From: Octopus vulgaris
Lineage: Eukaryota
Assembly: GCA_951406725.2 (NCBI GenBank)
Contig: OX597827.1
Span: 69,316,001-69,380,000, forward strand
Direction of reading: 5' to 3'
DNA length: 64,000 nt
Under the pieces are notes generated by a model. The model was not told where the DNA came from. It made no database searches and worked only from the letters and a program-made list of their open reading frames with translations. This document shows, piece after piece, positions 24,031 through 50,690 of this stretch. The translations under genes and the position numbers were made by a program. Positions within the stretch are counted from its first letter, which is position 1; each line of letters opens with the position of its first letter.

Positions 24031-24281
24031 ATATATATGTATATCTATATGTGTGTATATATATGTATATATATATAAATATGTGTGTATATGTATATAT
24101 ATGTCTGTATTTATATGTATTCATGTGTGTATATATATATATATGTACATATGTGTATGTGTGTATATGTATGTGTGTATATATGTATATGTGTGTATAT
24201 GTATATGTGTATATATGTATGTGTGTGTATATATTTACGTATATGTATATATATTTATGTATATGTATGTATATATATTTA

Positions 24282-25967
24282 TGAAATAGATGAAATGAAA
24301 ATAGACTCAGCTATTGGCCCCGATGGATTCCCGGTAATCCTCCTAAAAGTATGTAAGAGAGTCTTAGCAAGACCACTGCAGTTCCTCTTTCAGAGCTTCC
24401 TTGCAGCTGGCAAACTTCCAAGAAAACTGAAGGAAGGTAAAATATGCCCTATTCATAAAGGAGGTAGCAAAGCGGAGGCCAAGAACTACAGACCTATCTC
24501 TCTGACCTCGCACATCAGCAAGGTCATGGAACGAATAGTCAGAAGGAAACTAATCACCTTCCTTGAAGAAAATGACTTGCTGCCTGACACCCAACATGGT
24601 TTCCGACCAGGAAGAAGCTGCTTAACTCAGCTCCTGCAGCACTATGACTGGGTGCTGAAACAACTGCTCAACCACTCAAATGTGGAAGTCATATATCTCG
24701 ACTTCGCAAAGGCCTTCGATAAAGTCGATCATGGAATGATATGTCACAAACTGCGTGATCTTGGCATAGTTGGAAAACTAGGAGAATGGCTTCACGACTT
24801 TCTGAAGAATAGAAGTCAGGTGGTAGTAGCCAATGGGGCCACTTCCATTAGCACGCAAATAGTGAGCGGTGTTCCACAGGGCACTGTTTTGGGACCACTA
24901 CTGTTCATAATGGCCCTCTCAGACATGCCCTCAGCCACGCGGAGAGCCACGATCACAAGTTATGCAGATGATACAAAAGTTTCACAGGCAATACAGAACC
25001 CTGAAGACACTAGGCACCTGCAATATGAGCTGGACGAAATATACAAGTGGGCTGAAAAGAATAGCATGCAGTTCAATGCTGAAAAGTTTCAAGCTTTATA
25101 CTATCAGCATGCAAAACTGAATGCAATACCCAAGGAATACACTGGACCCGGAGGGATTGCAATCCCAGAGGCACAATCAGTGCGTGACCTGGGTATTCAC
25201 ATGAGTGATGACGCGACCTTTCATGTACATGTTGCTAAACTGACAATGAAATGCAGACGGCTGGCTGGATGGATTCTTAGAACCTTTAGAACAAGAGAAC
25301 AAGAAACCATGATGGTCCTCTGGAAGACACTTGTCCTAAGTCACTTTGACTATTGCTCTCAGCTATGGTCACCATCCAGTGTCAAGTTGATCACAGAACT
25401 TGAGGCGATCCAACGAAGCTACATGAAGAAGATAGCCTCTATGCAGAATGTAAGCTACTGGGAAAGACTCAAGAGATTAAAATTATATTCCCTGGAGCGT
25501 AGGCGGGAAAGATATGCCATAATATACATCTGGAAGATCCTGGAGGGAAGTGTCCTGAACTTTGGCATCGAGAGTTACGCAAATGCCAGAACTGGGTGCC
25601 ACTGCGTGGTGCCTAGGACTCCAAACTTGCCATCAAGATGTAGGACAAGATTCTGTGATAGCCTGGGCTTCCGAGGCCCACAGCTCTTCAATATCCTCCC
25701 GATGAACCTGAGAGACCTGCATGGGGTGGATACAGATGTCTTTAAAATGGAGCTGGATCTCTTCCTGTCAGGTGTCCCAGATGAACCAACTTCACGGCAG
25801 GAGGGGCAGATGAGGGCAGCTGCATCGAACTCTCTCATGCACCAAATAGCAGTTGCTAGAAAGCCTCCATGAAGTGAAACCAAGTAGCAACACCAAATGG
25901 CGGTGCCCCAGCATGGCCACAGCTCATAAGCTGAAACTAGAATCAATCAATCAATCAATCAATCAAT
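24282..25967 (+). mobile_element. 5'-truncated CR1/Jockey-group non-LTR retrotransposon with (AATC)n tail
   Basis: RT ORF, short 3'UTR and (aatc)n tail; microsatellite on both sides. Confidence 0.95.
24283..25872 (+). CDS. LINE ORF2 fragment: reverse transcriptase plus C-terminal region; frame open, endonuclease missing
   Basis: [72 protein letters not shown]. The ORF-track N-terminus 24085-24282 is microsatellite. Confidence 0.9.
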
Positions 25968-26303: not shown

Positions 26304-27448
26304 ATGGCCGCTTCCATTAACACGCAAATAGTGAGCGGTGTTCCACCAGGCACTGTTTTGGGACCACTACTGTTCATAATGTCCCTCCCATACAAGCCCT
26401 CAGCCACGCAGAGTGCCACGATCACAAGTTATGCATATGACACAAAAGTTTCACAGGCAATACAGAACCCTGAGGACACTAAACACCTGTAATATGAGCT
26501 GGACAAAATAAAAAAGTGGGCTGAAAAGAATAGCATGCAGTTCAATGCTGAAAAGTTTCAAGCTTTATGCTATCAGCATGCAAAACTAAATGCAATACCC
26601 AATGAATACACTGGACCCGGAGGGATTGCAAACCCAGAGGCACAGTCAGTGCGAGACCTGGGTTTTTACATGAGTATTGATGCAACTTTTCATGTGCATG
26701 TTGCTAAATTGGCAATGAAATGCAGGCAGCTGACCGGATGGATTCTTAGAGCTTTGAGAACAGGAGACCAGGAAACCATGATGGTCCTCTGGAGGACACT
26801 TGTCCTAAGCCACTTTGACTATTGCTCCCAGCTATGGTCACCAATTAGTGTCAAATTAGTCTCAGAACTTGAGGCAATCCAACGAAGCTACACGAAGAAG
26901 ATATCCTCTATGCAGCATATAAGCTACTGGGAAAGACTCAAGAGATTAAGATTCTATTCCTTAGAACGTAGGCAAGAAAGATATGCCATAATATACATCT
27001 GAAAGATCCTGGAAGGACTTGTCCCAAACTTTGGCATCGAGAGTTACAAAAATAATAGAACTGGGTGCCACTGCATAGTGCCAAGGACTCCAAATTTGCC
27101 ATCAAGATGTAGGATAAGAACTGCGATAGCCTGGGCTTCAGTGGTACACAGCTCTTCAATATCCTCCAGAAGGACCTGAGAGACCTGCATGGGGTGGATG
27201 CAGGTGTCTTCAAAATAGAGCTGGACCTCTTCCTGTCAGGTGTCCCAGATGAACCAACTTCACGGCAGGAAGGTGCAGATAAGGGCAGATGCATCAAACT
27301 CTCTCATGCACCAAATATCAATTGCTAAAAAGCATTCATGAAGTAAAATCATGTAGAAACATCGAATGGCGGTGCCCCAGCATGGCCACAGCTCATAAGC
27401 TGAAACTAGATAAAATAAAATAAAATTAAAAAAATAAAATTAAAATAA
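26304..27448 (+). mobile_element. Second 5'-truncated copy of the same LINE (defective) with (TAAAA)n tail
   Basis: Homologous from [11 protein letters not shown] onward; YADD changed to YAYD; stops at ~26490 and ~27000. Confidence 0.93.
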
Positions 27449-30176: not shown

Positions 30177-30446
30177 TTTGTATATATGTTTCTAGATATG
30201 TATGCGTATATGTGTGTGTGTGTGTGTGTGTGTGTATGTATATATATATATATGGGATATGTGTTTGTTTTTATGCATAAACATGTGATACATGTATGTA
30301 TATTCTTGTCATCGTCATTTTAGTAAATAAATAAATAACTTGACATATAATGTCTAAAAGTTGATGAAACACCTATTGATCCCCTCCATTTTCTTATTGC
30401 ACTATACATTATATATATATATATATATATAGGTGTATATATGAAT

Positions 30447-31075
30447 AGGACACTTATCCTAAGCCACTTTGACTATTGCTCTCAGCTATGGTCACAATCC
30501 AGTGTCAAGTTAATCACAGAACTTGAGGCGATCCAACGAAGCTACATGAAGAAGATAGCCTCTGTGCAGCATATAAGCTATTGGGAAAGACTCAAGAGAT
30601 TAAGTCTCTATTCCTTAGAGCGTAGGCGAGAAAGATATGCCATAATATACATCTGGAAGATCCTGGAAGGACTTGTCCCAAAGTTTGGCATCGAGAGTTA
30701 CGCAAATGCTAGAACTGGGCGCCACTGCATAGTGCCAAGGACTCCAAATTTGCCATCAAGATGTAGGACAAGATACTGTGATAGCCTGGGCTTCAGAGGC
30801 CCACAGCTCTTCAATATCCTCCTGAAGAACCTGAGAGACCTGCATGGGGTGGATGCAGATGTCTTTAAAATAAAACTGGATCTCTTCCTGTCAGGTGTCC
30901 CAGATGAACCAACTTCACGGCAGGAGGTGCATATGAGGGCAGCGGCATCGAACTTTCTCATGCACCAAATGGCAATTGCTAAAAAGCATTCGTGACGTAA
31001 AATCATGTAGCAACACCAAATGGTGGTACCCGATCATGGCCACAGCTCGTGAGCTGAAAGTAGATAAAAAAAAAA
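30447..31075 (+). mobile_element. Third 5'-truncated copy of the CR1-like LINE with poly-A tail
   Basis: [24 protein letters not shown], conserved 3'UTR. Confidence 0.93.
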
Positions 31076-31514: not shown

Positions 31515-32310
31515 TCCTCCCACCCTAACACCTCTTTATTCCAAATTCCTCCATCTGCGCAAGCTCTGCCATGACAACCATGACTTTGAAACTTAGTCTG
31601 AACTTGTGGCTCGACACTTCATCCTACATGGATATCCCCTAACTACTATCCACACATCCCTTGCCAGGGCACATTCTGTGCACCGTACTTCTGGTTTCTC
31701 CCCTGCACCCTCCTTGTCGTCACCCGTCTCTCGTTCCACCCCTCCATTCTACTTCTCCAACACACCATTATTCAAGCCTTCTGGCGACTCCGGTCCAACC
31801 CCTCCACTTCACACGTCTTCCCTAACCAACTCCCTCCCCTCCTTCAAACAACCTATGTGACCTCCTGGTCCACAGTTTCTTCTCTAACCTAACTCCCCAC
31901 CTCGGCATGTTCCCCTGCTGCCCGCCCATGCTGTCACACTTGCCCTTGCCCGTCCAACACCACCATCCCTACAGGCACCCATCATCGACCCTATCATATC
32001 ACTGACTCCTTCACCTGCACTTCTAGCAATTGCATCTCATGCTCTCTCTGTCCTCTGTACATTGGTCAAACGAGACGCTGTTTGGCTGACTGGTTCGGGG
32101 AACATCTCCAATACACCGGACTTGGCAACGACACTCTGGTCTCACACTATTTTCACTCTACCAGTCATTCTTTACAACAGCTATTTGTGTTCGTATTGTC
32201 CTTGCTCGGGGGCCATCAAACTCCCGTCTTTGCCATGAACAGGAATTAATCTTCTCTCTTTGCTCCTTTGCGCCACATGGGCTCAACTCTCCTATCCTCT
32301 TCATCTAACC
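31515..32310 (+). mobile_element. Decayed Penelope-like element (linker plus GIY-YIG endonuclease)
   Basis: SKFLHLRKLCHDNHDF, ARHFILHGYP, CCHTCP, DSFTCTSSNCISCSLCPLYIGQTRRCLADWFGEH, VSHYFHSTSH. Confidence 0.85.
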
Positions 32311-33321: not shown

Positions 33322-33508
33322 GTATACATATATATACGTATACTGATTATAGCAGTGACTCCTTCTAAGAATATCTGAAGAAGGAATTTTATACCGAAAT
33401 ATCATCTAACTATGGATGACTAAATTACAACAGGTATAGAACTCATTGTTTGTATTATAGTGCATTGTTGTACCATTCCTAACTTTTTATTCTATGCATA
33501 TATATATA

Positions 33509-33961
33509 TGTGTCTATGGCCAGCTGAAGGAGTGTGTCCTCCTGGGGCTAAAAACTACAGTAGCATCCACCCTTAGGGGTAGCCATATTGAAATGGCAAA
33601 TATACGTCACGATGTGTTACCGCTACTGTATATAACTCACTTTGATATTTATCATTGTTTGATTTCACTTTTTCAATATCAGCGACAGTGGACTCTGGAA
33701 AAAGTATAAGTATTTGTGAAGGAAATCTAATTCTCGCCGACAACTATGATTGTCACACACTGACGAGAGGTCAATACCTCGAAACTCGAGTCCGTGTGTA
33801 TCATAAGTTGAAGACGGGAAGGATGACTTCCCTTTGCAAATACTGACAGGGCACAGAAAGTGTGTCTATAGCCAGCTGGAGGAGTGTGTCCTCCTGGGGC
33901 TAAAAACTACAGTAGCATCCACCCTTAGGGGTAGCCATATTGAAATGGCAAATATATGTCA

Positions 33962-33965
<4 letters not shown>
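33509..33965 (+). mobile_element. Putative non-LTR retrozyme (352-bp unit, ~1.3 copies)
   Basis: 105-bp direct repeat at 33509-33613 and 33861-33965 enclosing a hammerhead; (TA)n on both sides. Confidence 0.7.
33741..33810 (+). ncRNA. Type I hammerhead ribozyme
   Basis: CTGACGA(33760-66), GAGG-tcaata-CCTC, GAAAC-tcga-GTC(33790-92). Stem I cacac/gtgtg, extended by caactatgat/atcataagttg. Confidence 0.88.
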
Positions 33966-34007
<42 letters not shown>

Positions 34008-34027
34008 TTATATGCATATATGTATAC

Positions 34028-35408: not shown

Positions 35409-35479
35409 TCCGTATATATGTGTGTATATATAAATATATGTATATATATATATATGTGTGTTTATAATGTGAATGTGTG

Positions 35480-35628
35480 TGTATATAATGTTTTGGTGCG
35501 TGGTTGGTCTCCTTTTTCCGTAGGTTTGGTGAAGAAGCATGTTGGACAGATCTGGCGTCTCTTGTGCCTTGTACTGTGTTGTTGGTTCATCTGAGATTTC
35601 CAACAGATATACATTCAGGTGCATTTTG
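35480..35628 (-). mobile_element. Diverged LINE C-terminal remnant (duplicate at ~38470-38608)
   Basis: KMHLNVYLLEISDEPT..SNMLLHQ resembles [23 protein letters not shown] of the RT ORF. Confidence 0.6.
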
Positions 35629-35745
35629 TATATGTAGGTATACCAACATCACCATTTAATGTCCGCCTCCCATGCTGGCATGGGTTGGATGGGACATAGA
35701 TGCATATTAATGTATGTGTATATATATAATGTATGTGTATATATA

Positions 35746-36034
35746 TCACGTCACGTGACCGACCAAACCATCAGATGTTTTTACACATCGCTGGTCACAA
35801 TGCGTTCGCACTGTTTTAGCCTTCGAATGATGCCACCCCACTGGCTAAGCGAGCAGGCCAACAAAAGAAAGATTGGTGAAAGAGTACAGCAGGGATCACC
35901 ACCCCCTGGCGGAGCCTTGTGGAGCTTTTAGGTGTTTTTGCTCAATAAACACTCACAATGCCCGGTCTGGGAATCGAAACCGCGATCCTCCGACCACAAG
36001 TCCGCTGCCCTAACCACTGGGCCATTGCGCCTCC
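35746..36034 (-). mobile_element. tRNA-derived SINE with the same head as 35028 but a different tail (duplicate at ~38708-38992)
   Basis: ccctaaccactgggccattgcgcctcc at the right end. Confidence 0.85.
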
Positions 36035-36061
36035 ACATGTGTGTATATGTATATATATTTA

Positions 36062-36226
36062 TATAGTCGATTCAAAGAACAACCAATTAAACAAACAGTA
36101 AACAAGAAAAAGACGAATATGAACATGCACAAGAAGTGTATTAATTTGACGTTTCAAGCATAGCTCTTTATCAGAAAGTCGAAAGAGGAAGAAGGAAAAA
36201 TGGCCAACAGTCCATATGCAGTTGCC
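36062..36226 (-). mobile_element. Short repeat, family C, with minimal hammerhead-like motif (duplicate at ~39018-39174)
   Basis: Reverse complement ttt-CTGATAA-AGAGC-tat-GCTT-GAAAC-GTC-aaa (36145-36177). Confidence 0.6.
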
Positions 36227-36261
36227 TATACGTATATATGCTTGCATGTATATGCATATAT

Positions 36262-36309
<48 letters not shown>

Positions 36310-36401
36310 TCATTCATATAGATGTCTGTGTGTATATGTATATATATGTATACATATATATATACATATTCATATACATGTCTGTGTGTATGTGTAAATA
36401 T

Positions 36402-36475
<74 letters not shown>

Positions 36476-36940
36476 GTAACAAATTGGGATCACGTGGATG
36501 AGAAAGGTCCGATTCCTGAGAGGAATGGACAGCATGCTATGACCAGCGGTGTCAAATGGATGCCCGATGGACTGGTCAGTCAAGGTGATATAACAAATGA
36601 AAAAATGGGAATTTGTGAGATTGTGTATCAATCAGAATGATCATTACAACCCATCTTGCGCCTGTCTCTTGCAAGAGAGATAATGTGCAACTGATTGTGA
36701 TGCATCCTGTGGTGCAGATGTTTCTTGCCAGATGACTTCACAAAAGGTTTCTTGATCAATAATGTGGGTTTCACTTGGTTCGGTTATGTAATGCATGTCC
36801 TTATATTATCTGCTTGTGTGCTCGCAGGTACAGGCAACTAACAACATGCATTATAATACAACCAAGTGCAATTGAGTTTATTGAGGCCACTTTTGAAAAG
36901 TCACCCAACAAGAGACATCTGCAGCAAAATTTGTCCAACC

Positions 36941-36985
<45 letters not shown>

Positions 36986-37135
36986 GTGTGTGTATATATA
37001 TATTATATGTATATATATATGTGTATATATGTGTGTGTGTGTATATATATATATATCTGTATATGTATATATATATATATATATATATCTTAGTATATAT
37101 ATATTGTATACATGTGTGTGTGTGTGTATATATAT

Positions 37136-37392
37136 ATTATTATTATTATGGCTGCCTCCTCATTATCGAGTATGGCCATTGCACAAGCTTAACTGGTGCT
37201 GTGATCGAATGTGACTTTTTAGCCCAGCTAAAGATCTACAATGTCTTGTACAAAATTGGCAACTAATACCTTTACCGGAAATAGCCGGCTGTAGTTGTAA
37301 CTGGGCTTCATGTACCTTTCCATGTTGTTTAAGTCCTCCGGCCGAATTACACTCTCTTCCACATGCCCGACAGATATGATTAGTATGGTGTG
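37136..37392 (-). mobile_element. LINE (probably RTE-type) 3' end with two C2H2 fingers and (TAA)n tail (duplicate at ~40056-40318)
   Basis: [43 protein letters not shown], then a short UTR and (taa)n. Confidence 0.7.
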
Positions 37393-37497
37393 TTATATAT
37401 ATATATATGTATATACACACACACATATAACGACTATGATGATGATGACATATATAAGACAGGCTTCCTTCAGTTTCCACCCACCAAATCCACTGAA

Positions 37498-37790
37498 ACC
37501 TATCAACAGAGCTACATCCTTCTTAACAAGGCACTAGCAAGGAGTCGCTTTGCCAATAAATTAGCATCTGTGGAGACACTTCCACTCCTGAACCCAAAGT
37601 GACTGAGAAAGAGAAAAATAGTCTGGTTCAATCCTCCATACAACCTAAATGTTTCCACTCATATAGCTAGGTGTTACCTGATGCTTAGTAAAATATTTTC
37701 TTCCTAGGATCTATGGATATTATCAGTTTCTCAATCCCCATAATGTCAAGGTGAGCTACTCCTGTTTAGACAACATTGCTCAAAACATAT
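37498..37790 (+). mobile_element. Penelope-like remnant (duplicate at ~40422-40715)
   Basis: RKRKIVWFNPPYNLNVSTHIAR and VKVSYSCLDNI motifs typical of the PLE RT-EN linker. Confidence 0.75.
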
Positions 37791-39208
37791 GCCACAGTGT
37801 GCACAAATACACAACTACACAGCCTCCAACTCACACCCCAATCTGTAGCTGATGAAATCCTGCCAACAACACACTATACTGATCCTACCTCACACTATCC
37901 AATAGCATCACAAATTATTACTTCAGGGATATGACTAAGAGAAATATACTTGCTGTGCTCCAAAAGACCCATCTGTCACAGTGAAAGTGCAGTCCTAATA
38001 GCATTATTATGTCTATACTACAGTCACTGGGCCCTGCACTCAATCTGTCCCTGTCAAACCTTTTCCATCTCTCATCCTCCTAACACCCATCCTACCATCA
38101 CTTTCCTAACTATGGCACTATTCAGCTGCTGTAATCATATAAGAACAAAAGCTGCACATACTCCATCCCCCACCCCACCCTTTGTACTACCAGTTACCTG
38201 CCCACTCTCACTGGAACCACTTCTTTTTCAAATTTGTCCCTATTTCTTAATATCATTCCTCTCCACTTTATTTTCCATTGATCACAAATTTCTATACCTC
38301 ACTTCCTCTCACCCTCTCCTCTGAGCTACATCCTAGGNNNNNNNNNNNNNNNNNNNNNNNNNNNNNNNNNNNNNNNNNNNNNNNNNNNNNNNNNNNNNNN
38401 NNNNNNNNNNNNNNNNNNNNNNNNNNNNNNNNNNNNNTGTGTTTATAATGTGAATGTGTGTGTATATAATGTTTTGGTGCGTGGTTGGTCTCCTTTTTCC
38501 GTAGGTTTGGTGAAGAAGCATGTTGGACAGATCTGGCATCTCTTGTGCCTTGTACTGTGTTGTTGGTTCATCTGAGATTTCCAACAGAAGTACATTCAGG
38601 TGCATCTTGTATATGTAGTTATACCAACATCACCATTTAATGTCCGCCTCCCATGCTGGCATGGGTCGGATGGGACATAGATGCATATTAATGTATGTGT
38701 ATATATATCATGTCACGTAACCGACCTGACCATCAGATGTTGCTACACATCGCTGGTCACAATGCGTTCGCACTGTTTTAGCCTTCGAATGATGCCACCC
38801 CACTGGCTAAGCGAGCAGGCCAACAAAAGAGTGATGAAAGAGTACAGCAGGGATCACCACCCCCTGGCGGAGCCTTGTGGAGCTTTTAGGTGTTTTTGCT
38901 CAATAAACACTCACAATGCCCGGTCTGGGAATCGAAACCGCGATCCTCCGACCACAAGTCCGCTGCCCTAACCACTGGGCCATTGCGCCTCCACATGTGT
39001 GTATATATATACATTTATATAGTCGATTCAAAGAACAACCAATTACAACCAAGAAAAAGACGAATATGAACTTGCACAAGAAGTGTATTAATTTGACGTT
39101 TCAAGCATAGCTCTTTATCAGAAAGTCGAAAGAGGAAGAAGGAAAAATGGCCAACAAACCATATGCAGTTGCCTATACGTATATATGCTTGCATGTATAT
39201 GCATATAT

Positions 39209-39241
<33 letters not shown>

Positions 39242-39346
39242 CATATATATTCATTCATTCATATAGATGTCTGTGTATATGTGTATATATATGTATACAT
39301 ATATATATACATATTCATATACATGTCTGTGTGTATGTGTAAATAT

Positions 39347-39420
<74 letters not shown>

Positions 39421-39887
39421 GTAACAAATTGGGATCACGTGGATGAGAAAGGTCCGATCCTGAGAGGAATGGACAGCATGCTGTGACCAGCGGTGTCAAA
39501 TGGATGCCCGATGGACTGGTCAGTCAAGGTGATATAACAAATGAAAAAATGGAATTTATGAGATTGTGTATCAATCAGAATGATCATTACAACCCATCTT
39601 GCGCCTGTCTCTTGCAAGAGAGATAATGTGCAACTGATTGTGATGCATCCTGTGGTGCAGATGTTTCTTGCCAGATGACTTCACAAAAGGTTTCTTGATC
39701 AATAATGTGGGTTTCACTTGGTTCGGTTATGTAATGCATGTCCTTATATTATCTGCTTGTGTGCTCGCAGGTACAGGCAACTAACAACATGCATTATGAT
39801 ATAACCAAGTGCAATTGAGTTTATTGAGTGGGGCCACTTTTGAAAAGTCACCCAACAAGAGACATCTGCAGCAAAATTTGTCCAACC

Positions 39888-39940
<53 letters not shown>

Positions 39941-41781
39941 ATATATATATATGTGTGTGTGTGTGTATATATATATATATCTGTGTGTGTATATATATAT
40001 ATATATATCTTAGTATATATATATTGTATACATGTGTGTGTGTGTGTATATATATATTATTATTATTATTATGGCTGCCTCCTCATTATCGAGTATGGCC
40101 ATTGCACGAAGCTTAACTGGTGCTGTGATCGAATGTGACTTTTTAGCCCAGCTAAAGATCTACAATGTCTTGTACAAAATTGGCAACTAATACCTTTACC
40201 GGAAATAGCCGGCTGTAGTTGTAACTGGGCTTCATGTACCTTTCCATGTTGTTTAAGTCCTCCGGCCGAATTACACTCTCTTCCACATGCCCGACAGATA
40301 TGATTAGTATGGTGTGTTATATATATATATATGTATATACACACACACATATAACGACTATGATGATGATGACATATATAAGACAGGCTTCCTTCAGTTT
40401 CCACCCAACAAATCCACTGAAACCTATCAACAGAGCTACATCCTTTATAACAAGGCACTAGCAAGGAGTGGCTTTACCAATAAATTAGTATCTATGGAGA
40501 AACTTCTACTCATGAACCCAAAGTGACTCAGAAAGAGAAAAATAGTCTGGTTCAATCCTCCATACAACCTAAATGTTTCCACTCATATAGCTAGGTGTTA
40601 CCTGATGCTTAGTAAAATATTTTCTTCCTAGGATCTATGGATATTATCAGTTTCTCAATCCCCATAATGTCAAGGTGAGCTACTCCTGTTTAGACAACAT
40701 TGCTCAAAACATATGCCACAGTGTGCACAAATACACAACTACACAGCCTCCAACTCACACCCCAATCTGTAGCTGATGAAATCCTGCCAACAACACACTA
40801 TACTGATCCTACCTCACACTATCCAATAGCATCACAAATTATTACTTCAGGGATATGACTAAGAGAAATATACTTGCTGTGCTCCAAAAGACCCATCTGT
40901 CACAGTGAAAGTGCAGTCCTAATAGCATTATTATGTCTATACTACAGTCACTGGGCCCTGCACTCAATCTGTCCCTGTCAAACCTTTTCCATCTCTCATC
41001 CTCCTAACACCCATCCTACCATCACTTTCCTAACTATGGCACTATTCAGCTGCTGTAATCATATAAGAGCAAAAGCTGCACATACTCCATCCCCCACCCC
41101 ACACCTTTGTACTACCAGTTACCTGCCCACTCTCACTGGAACCACTTCTTTTTCAAATTTGTCCCTATTTCTTAATATCATTCCTCTCCACTTTATTTTC
41201 CATTGATCACAAATTTCTATACCTCACTTCCTCTCACCCTCTCCTCTGAGCTACATCCTAGGACAACCATACCTCATCTTATTAACACCCTCTCAGATAG
41301 CCATCAGTCCGCCCCCCCCCCTGTCTTTGTTCCTCACTCAGTCTTGCCATCCCTGCAAACCCCTGACACCCATCAATGTTGCTATCCATTTCTTTCTCCC
41401 CCTCTCTCTCTCCCCCCTTCACTCTTCCCACTCCCACATATCTCCCTATTTTCTGATCTCCATTGGTTTATCAAACTGCTGCTCTCTACCCTTCCTGTAC
41501 TACATCTTATCACTTCCTCCTCTTTCCTCAAGCACTCCTATCCCTTTTACTCCCCCCATTCTCCACCTAACAGATAATAGCCATTGACCATGCCTCCACC
41601 CTTGTCCATCATTCACTACTTCTCACCTCTACTCTCATCTCTAACCATCTAATGGTGAACTTATCCAACCACCATTCCAAACCTGTTTTCTCTCTTATAA
41701 CTCACATTCTTGTATTTTGAGAGTTTGCCCTGACATCTTGTTCCTACCGCTTTGTCCTTTTTCCAATTACTCTCACCTATA

Positions 41782-49655: not shown

Positions 49656-50690
49656 ATCATCATCATCATTTAATGTCTGTTGTCCATATTGGCATGGGTT
49701 GGACGTTTTGACTGGGCTGGCACACTGGAAGGCTGCACCAGACTCCAGTCTGATTCGGCTTGGCTTTCTACAGCTGCATGCTCTTCCTAATACTAACCAC
49801 TCCAAGAGAGTAATGGGTGCTTTTATATGCCACTGGCACAGGTGCCATTTACATAATACTAGGTTGCTTTTACATGCCACTGACACGGGTGTCACTTTGC
49901 GTGGCACCGGTATCTGCCATGACTGCGATTTTGCTCAGCTTGGTGGGTCTTCTTCTCAAGCATGACATAATGCCAAAGGTCTCGGTCATTGCCTCTGTGA
50001 GGCCCAACACTCAAAAGGAACCCAGCCACTTTGCTTCCTTGAGGCCCAATGCTTGAAAGGAACTAGACCACTTTGCCTTTGTGAGGCCCAACACTCAAAA
50101 GGAACTCAGTCACTTTGTCTCTGTGAGGCCCAACACTCAAAAGGAACCCAGCCACTTTGCCTCCTTGAGGCCCAATGCTTGAAAGGAACTAGACCACTTT
50201 GCCTTTGTGAGGACCAAAACTCAAAAGGAACTCAGCCACTTTTCCTCCTTGAGGCCCAATGCTTGAAAGGAACTAGACCACTTTGCCTTTGTGAGGCCCA
50301 ATACTCAAAAGGAACTCAGTCACTTTGTCTCTGTGAGGCCCAACACATGAAAGGTGTTCTTTTCGTGCCACCAGCATAACTATGATTTCACTTGGCTTGG
50401 CAGGTCCTTTCAAGCTCAGCACATCGCCAAAGGTCACTAATCATTGCTTCTGTGAGGGTCAAAGTTCGAAGATCATGTTGCACCACCTTCTCCCATGTTT
50501 TCCTGGGCCTACCTCTACCACATGTACCCTCCAAGTTAGAAATCAACACTTCTTTACACAGCTGTCCTCGTCCATAAGCATCACAAGACCATGCCAGCTC
50601 AGTCATTTATCTTGCATACCACATCTGATGCCTCTTATGCTTAACTTTTCTCTCAAGATGCTTACACTCTGTCAAACATGCACACTGGAG
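49656..50690 (-). mobile_element. RTE-clade LINE 3' portion with internal minisatellite and (GAT)n tail
   Basis: LEGTCGRGRPRKTWEKVVQHDLRTLTLTEAM..DLWR; tail (atc)n at 49656-49668. Confidence 0.8.
49990..50353. repeat. 42-bp minisatellite, ~8.5 copies
   Basis: gagg(c/a)ccaa at 49999, 50041, 50083, 50125, 50167, 50209, 50251, 50293, 50335. Confidence 0.95.

Follow-up and report, generated by a model that had tools for sequence, protein, structure and literature searches.

A hammerhead ribozyme of Octopus vulgaris lies in a putative retrozyme family whose insertions carry a Penelope-type footprint

Introduction

What kind of element does a lone hammerhead ribozyme motif in an octopus genome belong to, and how was it copied there? 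The question arises from a 64,000-nucleotide stretch of Octopus vulgaris DNA (the window, to which all coordinates refer; assembly GCA_951406725.2, contig OX597827.1, positions 69,316,001 to 69,380,000), in which a sequence-only reading had picked out a type I hammerhead with a palindromic stem III. Animal non-LTR retrozymes have been described as 350-390-bp repeats in mussel and 330/350-bp repeats in axolotl, in a report that also describes retrozyme circles and suggests that Penelope-like elements (PLEs) move retrozymes (Cervera and de la Pena 2020, PMC7229834). Retrozymes have since been interpreted as non-autonomous PLE sequences, from co-occurrence and homology to PLE pseudo-LTRs (pLTRs), in vertebrates, insects and coral, with no mollusc among the taxa named in the main text (Li, Clavereau and Pollet 2026, bioRxiv 10.64898/2026.07.22.740005).

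PLE insertions are characterized by 5' truncation, partial tandems, an inverted 5' copy, a 30-40-bp tail at one end and (TA)n targets (Craig et al., 10.1101/2021.04.23.441226). For Poseidon of Anolis, an EN+ PLE, in vitro work shows that the protein cleaves AT-rich DNA on both strands and begins synthesis at two internal sites, between which the tail lies, and it is predicted to form a dimer (Frangieh et al., PMC11167929). Our literature search, with subscription papers and supplements (including that of PMC7229834) outside its scope, yielded no paper about retrozymes of cephalopods and none about tail and inversion footprints of retrozymes, and the words 'ribozyme' and 'retrozyme' are absent from the main text of an octopus repeat annotation (PMC13282606).

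A type I hammerhead with an intact core

The hammerhead occupies 33741-33810 of the forward strand, with an extended stem I and a predicted cut after 33792. Direct reading recovers every element that had been claimed for its core, each at its place: CUGACGA (33760-33766), stem II as GAGG/CCUC (33767-70/33777-80) with loop UCAAUA and a possible fifth U-A pair, GAAA (33781-84) and a GUC ending at 33792. The proximal part of stem I (33754-59/33793-98) has C.A at 1.1-2.1 and is followed by a UGU/U internal loop, beyond which the roughly ten further pairs described earlier are read as 6+4. The motif thus contains CUGANGA, GAAA, NUH and stems I-III and has its ends in stem I, as a type I hammerhead should. 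Stem III and its loop (33784-33791) are self-complementary, as had been noted, forming an 8-nt palindrome predicted to give an 8-bp helix between two ribozymes.

A hammerhead descriptor finds this one site in the window and none in 100 shuffled windows. In the proposed check with the Rfam Hammerhead_1 model (RF00163), the model matches 33754-33798 over all 45 positions (E 3.8e-5); the copy scored here, which carries the A discussed below, reaches 29.5 bits against a gathering score of 34, and no Rfam family reaches its gathering score in the 64,000-nt window. The locus shares with the Schistosoma/newt-type hammerheads of RF00163 the core, the three stems, a 6-nt loop II ending in A and an unpaired U1.7, and differs in its lower score and in the C.A at 1.1-2.1. 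Other Rfam matches near the locus were rejected as AT-repeat artefacts. An 81-nt stretch around the motif folds with a z of -3.1, its best fold being a slipped stem I rather than the hammerhead.

The unpaired U1.7 (33799), the last A of loop II (A33776) and the first U of the stem I bulge (U33751) are invariant in all 24 ribozymes compared across subfamilies. U33799 may thus take part in a tertiary contact, and a Hoogsteen contact between U1.7 and a loop A has been described (PMC11875169). With the earlier suggestion that contacts between loop II and stem I enable fast cleavage, the conservation is only consistent.

A private G>A change at position 33759

Position 33759 (2.1 in hammerhead numbering, forward strand) is a private A where the family has G within a CpG. 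The suspected G>A decay at CpG 33758-59 is borne out across the genome (2.8 Gb in 227 contigs): of the exact 45-nt core there are 407 occurrences in the G form and 4 in the A form (reversed controls, 0), and the family consensus is indeed G, carried by all 110 aligned copies that span the site. Since the three other A-form loci each contain sister units with G, the change has arisen more than once. Substitutions reach 0.94% at CpG sites (25/2654) against 0.55% elsewhere (196/35803). Contigs of eight public runs from six organisms carry G at this position wholly or almost wholly.

In folding, A33759 permits a perfect two-base slip of stem I in which C3 is captured, and the native 2.2-1.2 pair has a predicted probability of 0.64 with G and of 0.05 with A, in a secondary-structure calculation (ViennaRNA) that ignores tertiary contacts, so that the monomer may be more active than computed. 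On this modelling, the ribozyme of the window copy is predicted to be attenuated by A33759.

A 457-bp insertion in an (AT)n tract

Two 105-nt direct repeats, 97% identical and 352 nt apart, flank the hammerhead (33509-33613 and 33861-33965, forward strand), which makes the motif part of a repeat element. The whole insertion spans 33509-33965 (457 bp, forward strand) and comprises 1.3 copies of a 352-bp unit (33509-33860, circularly permuted relative to the cleavage site), with the 105-nt repeats as its partial tandem overlap. It is a single arm, truncated at the 5' end, which is variable across the family, and it terminates at the 'short' 3' end, the last base of the second repeat (33965), 173 nt past the cleavage site. 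An internal copy of the 43-46-nt 'tail' that separates the short and long 3' ends of family insertions lies at 33614-33659. The insertion sits between (AT)n target tracts at 33498-33509 and 33964-34026, inside which target-site duplications are unreadable.

No stop-to-stop frame of at least 110 aa lies over 33509-33965, the unit has no similarity to PLE protein, and the insertion is without the RT/GIY-YIG reading frame of an autonomous PLE. Inspection of frames and domains, as distinct from gene annotation, identified no host exon near it. Six private changes in 457 bp place the copy within the family spread (mean 0.57%). Two consecutive intact ribozymes, the mark of an 'active' retrozyme for Li et al., are present at other loci such as L008 and L189, and the window locus has one. 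Because A33759 is predicted to trap C3 and a single ribozyme is present, the window copy is probably a dead end.

A young family with compensatory changes in its stems

Searching the genome with the family gave at least 110 matches from the 40 scored of 2776 candidates, the best 97-98% identical. Steps of 352/353 nt and head-to-head arrangements are frequent, and up to five units follow one another head to tail. The unit falls within the 150-450-bp range of retrozymes, holds one type I hammerhead, recurs head to tail at many loci and has no protein-coding capacity. Folded as a circle it reaches -117.4 kcal/mol with 64% paired (z -6.3; 0 of 100 shuffles as good), the highly paired circle of this class. 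Judged by its sequence, the family is a young, dispersed, often tandem, non-coding non-LTR retrozyme whose copies are about 98% alike, and a new sequence family of a known animal element class.

With the mussel and axolotl retrozymes, as the main text of PMC7229834 describes them, it shares a short non-coding tandem unit of similar size, one canonical type I hammerhead, a 2-bp stem III with a palindromic tetraloop, a predicted highly paired circle and coexistence with PLEs. It differs in having a new sequence and in being known here from genome sequence alone; it is also for the most part dispersed, in short (AT)n-borne arrays that number 1-5 units and in about half of the cases stand head-to-head. 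Fixed ends, a tail or inversions are not known to have been described for the mussel and axolotl repeats.

A looser core pattern matches 1353 places (reversed control, 0). Sister subfamilies, about 70% alike, were first found beside two loci and then expanded. A hand count of loop III in the first 100 listed looser-pattern matches, which are related copies and in which the pattern fixes the pair flanking the loop, gave 77 strict palindromes of five kinds, 17 sequences self-complementary with G-U and 6 broken ones. Across 24 hand-picked ribozymes from the subfamilies, 94% of cells are paired and 9 of 20 pairs show double changes, with a covariation score of 0.442 against 0.234 when shuffled and at most 0.16 in slid controls, scores that kinship among the ribozymes inflates. 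Of the loop III pairs, the two that only a dimer can form are paired in 100% of cases, one with 10 and the other with 8 double changes; 14 of the 24 ribozymes leave pair 10.1-11.1 unpaired. The sequence-only reading had counted a lack of stem covariation in paralogs as evidence against it, and stems I-III, with a self-complementary stem III, are kept there through compensatory changes.

Despite a U for C at core position 3, with G8 kept, and a 10.1-11.1 pair that is often non-canonical, young sister subfamilies (L100-L128, L221-L229) have undergone recent spread. Some (AT)n tracts have collected units from different subfamilies together with Penelope-like ends (L025 1344-2326; L157 1452-1501; L165, L190, L003, L221 and L224). 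Two cores 3250 bp apart on contig C2 (L065), considered as a full element with two pLTRs, turned out to be a satellite duplication: a unit had inserted into a large A/T-tract satellite and was later duplicated along with it. The 1.4- and 1.6-kb spacings of sister cores (L219, L220) are likewise local duplications, with unrelated flanks.

Predicted folding of monomers and dimers

Adopting the hammerhead fold costs the monomer 6.5 (G) or 8.0 (A) kcal/mol relative to the ensemble. Two G forms co-fold best as a double hammerhead and two A forms do not, the joint stem III probability being 0.49 for G+G, 0.27 for A+G and 0.18 for A+A. For the two-unit stretch found naturally at L008, folding reaches its minimum energy as the double hammerhead, with the intervening unit as a branched rod, which gives support in silico to the claim that a palindromic stem III allows dimeric folding. 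These predictions fit the regulation described in PMC4209133, where cleavage occurs in multimers and none in circles. Dimer cleavage of PLE hammerheads has been reported (PMC6765202), and in vitro only one of nine predicted retrozyme dimers cleaved (Li et al., bioRxiv 10.64898/2026.07.22.740005).

Two fixed 3' ends and paired arms

For the end statistics we used every listed place on contigs C1-C3 that has an exact G core, 57 loci in all; leaving out L174 as a duplicate of L172 gives 56 loci (29 single-arm and 27 head-to-head). By their distance past the cleavage site, 3' ends come in two classes, short (168-174) and long (213-222), about 45 nt apart, and the sister subfamilies end at the identical two points. 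Single-arm insertions are mostly short (22/29), with 5/29 long and 2/29 other. Head-to-head insertions combine a short with a long end in 22 of 27 cases, the remainder being long+other (3/27) and short+other (2/27), where 'other' is one disrupted arm; short+short and long+long were each found in 0/27. Such ends run into (AT)n in 66 of 76 cases, and 5' ends are scattered. With 5' truncation, partial tandems, an inverted 5' copy, a one-end tail and a microsatellite target, the retrozyme insertions carry the Penelope 'tail' footprint.

Both arms carry one haplotype in 27 of 27 inverted insertions, for which chance, from pool frequencies, is about 1e-20. Divergence is 0.70% within arms, 0.92% between arms and 1.72% between loci. 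Private changes found in at least two copies of one locus number 25; 20 are present in all covering copies (five in a row at L189; 2 of the 20 stem from the later duplication at L065) and 5 are mosaic. The uniform changes fit a circle template, and the mosaic ones fit either a mixed multimer or conversion at a later time. Among 21 short+long insertions (L016, complex, was left out), 6 have arms of which each holds sequence missing from the other, so fold-back copying of one cDNA is ruled out in these and was rejected as the general cause of inversion. We read the inverted insertions as two priming events on one template.

A 7-bp stem (33558-64 with 33622-28, forward strand) encloses a small hairpin (33582-97) and the short end, and is conserved across subfamilies with one compensatory pair. 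The hairpin was not called by RNAalifold; with its structure set by hand, 95% of it pairs and double changes are absent, which leaves it weakly supported. The 7-bp stem is a weakly supported candidate for a reverse transcriptase recognition element.

Penelope-like helper candidates

GIY-YIG frames gave at least 148 matches from the 150 scored of 6136 candidates, including repeated 781-aa open frames. At one locus (L041), a CxxC motif lies between the RT and GIY-YIG domains, a domain arrangement that, following Craig et al., we read as putatively of Neptune/Nematis type. In a second young Neptune-type family (RT + GIY-YIG; L129-L158), copies are 97-98% identical and end in (AT)n with or without their own tail, and all three of the inverted insertions found have short+long arms. 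At L115, a sister-subfamily unit (long end) stands head-to-head with a Neptune-type element (short end), the joint being a small hairpin with no microsatellite. This exception to the one-template rule is the single clear chimera among roughly 150 loci and involves a sister subfamily, not the window copy's own.

The family resembles EN+ PLEs (Neptune/Nematis, Poseidon), as these are described by Craig et al. and Frangieh et al., in its 5' truncation, partial tandems, inverted 5' copy, one-end tail and (TA)n targets, and also in having two internal start sites with the hammerhead upstream of both. It differs in its unit without an RT/endonuclease frame, in a tail of 43-46 nt versus 30-40, and in a canonical versus a minimal hammerhead. 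A Penelope-type retrotransposon enzyme likely copies the retrozyme. The evidence thus points to the same helper class as in Li et al., by another route: the main text of Li et al. describes local tandem amplification and homology to pLTRs, while in octopus the case rests on the insertion footprint and the arrays look as if they formed at insertion. In the sampled Penelope-like elements (42 GIY-YIG loci and 30 further loci), no pLTR or terminal repeat homologous to the unit was seen.

Several candidate links were set aside. A likeness by eye between the 3' ends of the unit and of the Neptune-type element gave a z of 1.5 (best of 21 comparisons 1.9) and no nhmmer hit. L206, an older Neptune-type copy joined to an array via a short inversion, may reflect insertion of the array into that copy and was not counted as a chimera; at L003, L190, L221, L224 and L165 the element ends next to units are joined to them by (AT)n and were read as separate insertions into a shared target. 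The young Penelope-like families carry minimal hammerhead variants of their own (L041 2770-2806; L115 about 2778-2803; the 3' region of L165), each with a palindromic stem III and two with U3-A8.

Proposed copying and its alternatives

We consider it probable that the window holds a 5'-truncated copy of a young, protein-free repeat that inserts in (AT)n, most likely by Penelope-like copying, and whose lone ribozyme, predicted to be attenuated, would be unable to release the unit. In the proposed course, tandem arrays, as seen in the genome, would be transcribed; neighbouring hammerheads would pair through the palindromic stem III, as the computed folding suggests, and cut out unit-length RNA, which a host ligase would close (by analogy with PMC7229834). 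Poor folding is predicted for the single ribozyme of a circle, which would thereby stay closed. A Neptune-type RT/GIY-YIG protein, proposed from the enzyme of PMC11167929, likely cuts (AT)n, and cDNA would begin at two fixed points within the RNA, about 173 and 216-219 nt past the cleavage site. One start would leave a single arm, as in the window copy; both starts on one template, one per DNA strand, would leave head-to-head arms with a tail on one side, a pattern that is observed and for which we infer twin priming. The six substitutions seen in the window copy, G>A at 33759 among them, would have been gained after insertion.

A more tentative proposal, which we hold at slightly less than even confidence, concerns the template itself. 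A monomer-stable 352-nt circular RNA, released from the double hammerhead, would be bound by a dimeric Penelope-type enzyme at two sites, each subunit priming from one strand of the cut (AT)n on the same RNA. The helper would share no detectable sequence with the unit, and recognition would be by shape, namely the stem around the start site, as the chimera at L115 suggests. If true, this would explain the Penelope tail, the inverted arms and the tandem copies together. The five mosaic shared changes do not fit one uniform circle template at the insertions concerned, and they favour an alternative with the same element and helper in which a linear multimeric array transcript is the template, the ribozyme and circles having no part in copying; PLE insertion in vitro also uses uncut RNA and does not need cleavage (Frangieh et al., PMC11167929). 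We regard the linear template as rather unlikely, given that subfamilies about 70% alike keep hammerhead and palindrome by compensatory change, that the unit folds as a compact circle (z -6.3), and that 20 of the 25 shared changes are uniform across covering copies, including the consecutive five at L189.

That the unit is instead the pLTR of an unsampled autonomous Penelope-like element, with arrays of truncated or read-through terminal repeats, seems improbable. Such an origin would leave the same footprint as PLEs, retrozymes are related to pLTRs in Xenopus according to Li et al., and 150 of the 6136 GIY-YIG candidates were scored. Yet 0 copies in the 57-locus sample continue upstream into a collinear RT/EN frame, unit follows unit head to tail up to five times, L206 as the sole element fragment in that sample has a different 3' region, and the sampled elements carry U3-A8-type minimal hammerheads, not canonical ones. 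Spread of a satellite-like repeat through duplication at the DNA level, or of a SINE by a LINE enzyme of RTE/CR1 type, would sit well with the LINE fragments common in the window and with the copies in later segmental duplications (L065, L219), but is very improbable in view of 3' ends that lie at two fixed internal points and lack both poly(A) and a simple-repeat tail of their own, scattered 5' ends, flanks that differ per locus and the strict short+long rule. Neither recombination nor priming by a LINE at the 3' terminus of the RNA would be expected to leave these features, and the end statistics largely refute both forms of this explanation. Least credible of all is retention of the window copy for a host function, as a tuned, attenuated ribozyme: the intact core speaks for it and nothing further, whereas its six private changes lie within the family spread, the A form is absent or nearly so from the contigs of the eight public runs, and no host exon was identified nearby on frame and domain inspection.

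The window copy is an ordinary one, a decaying insertion among hundreds, and the interest rests, modestly, with the family. Its insertions record what is probably Penelope-type copying, with two start sites mapped to a few bases, one of each in inversions, and one template. With a 352-nt non-coding RNA and helper candidates that are young and intact, this one genome offers a small test system, which could address the origin of the Penelope tail and inversions and whether the circle is the template. Additionally, the natural A and G forms are a ready pair for a cleavage test.

Other features of the window

Upstream of the insertion, LINE fragments lie at 24079-25872, 26493-27002 and 30351-30995, the first with a long open RT frame (RVT_1, E 7e-32). 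A decayed frame at 31893-32249 on the forward strand looks by eye like the GIY-YIG end of a Penelope-like element; it has no Pfam or tblastn match, and no link to the retrozyme was seen. Downstream, 35457-41262 is a tandem duplication of about 2.95 kb with blocks 95-100% identical, either recent or an assembly artefact, each copy of which has a minus-strand frame with two C2H2-like motifs (37163-37522 and 40069-40473), probably a LINE end. A 42-bp minisatellite of 8.5 copies, with a 126-bp higher-order period, occupies 49989-50346.
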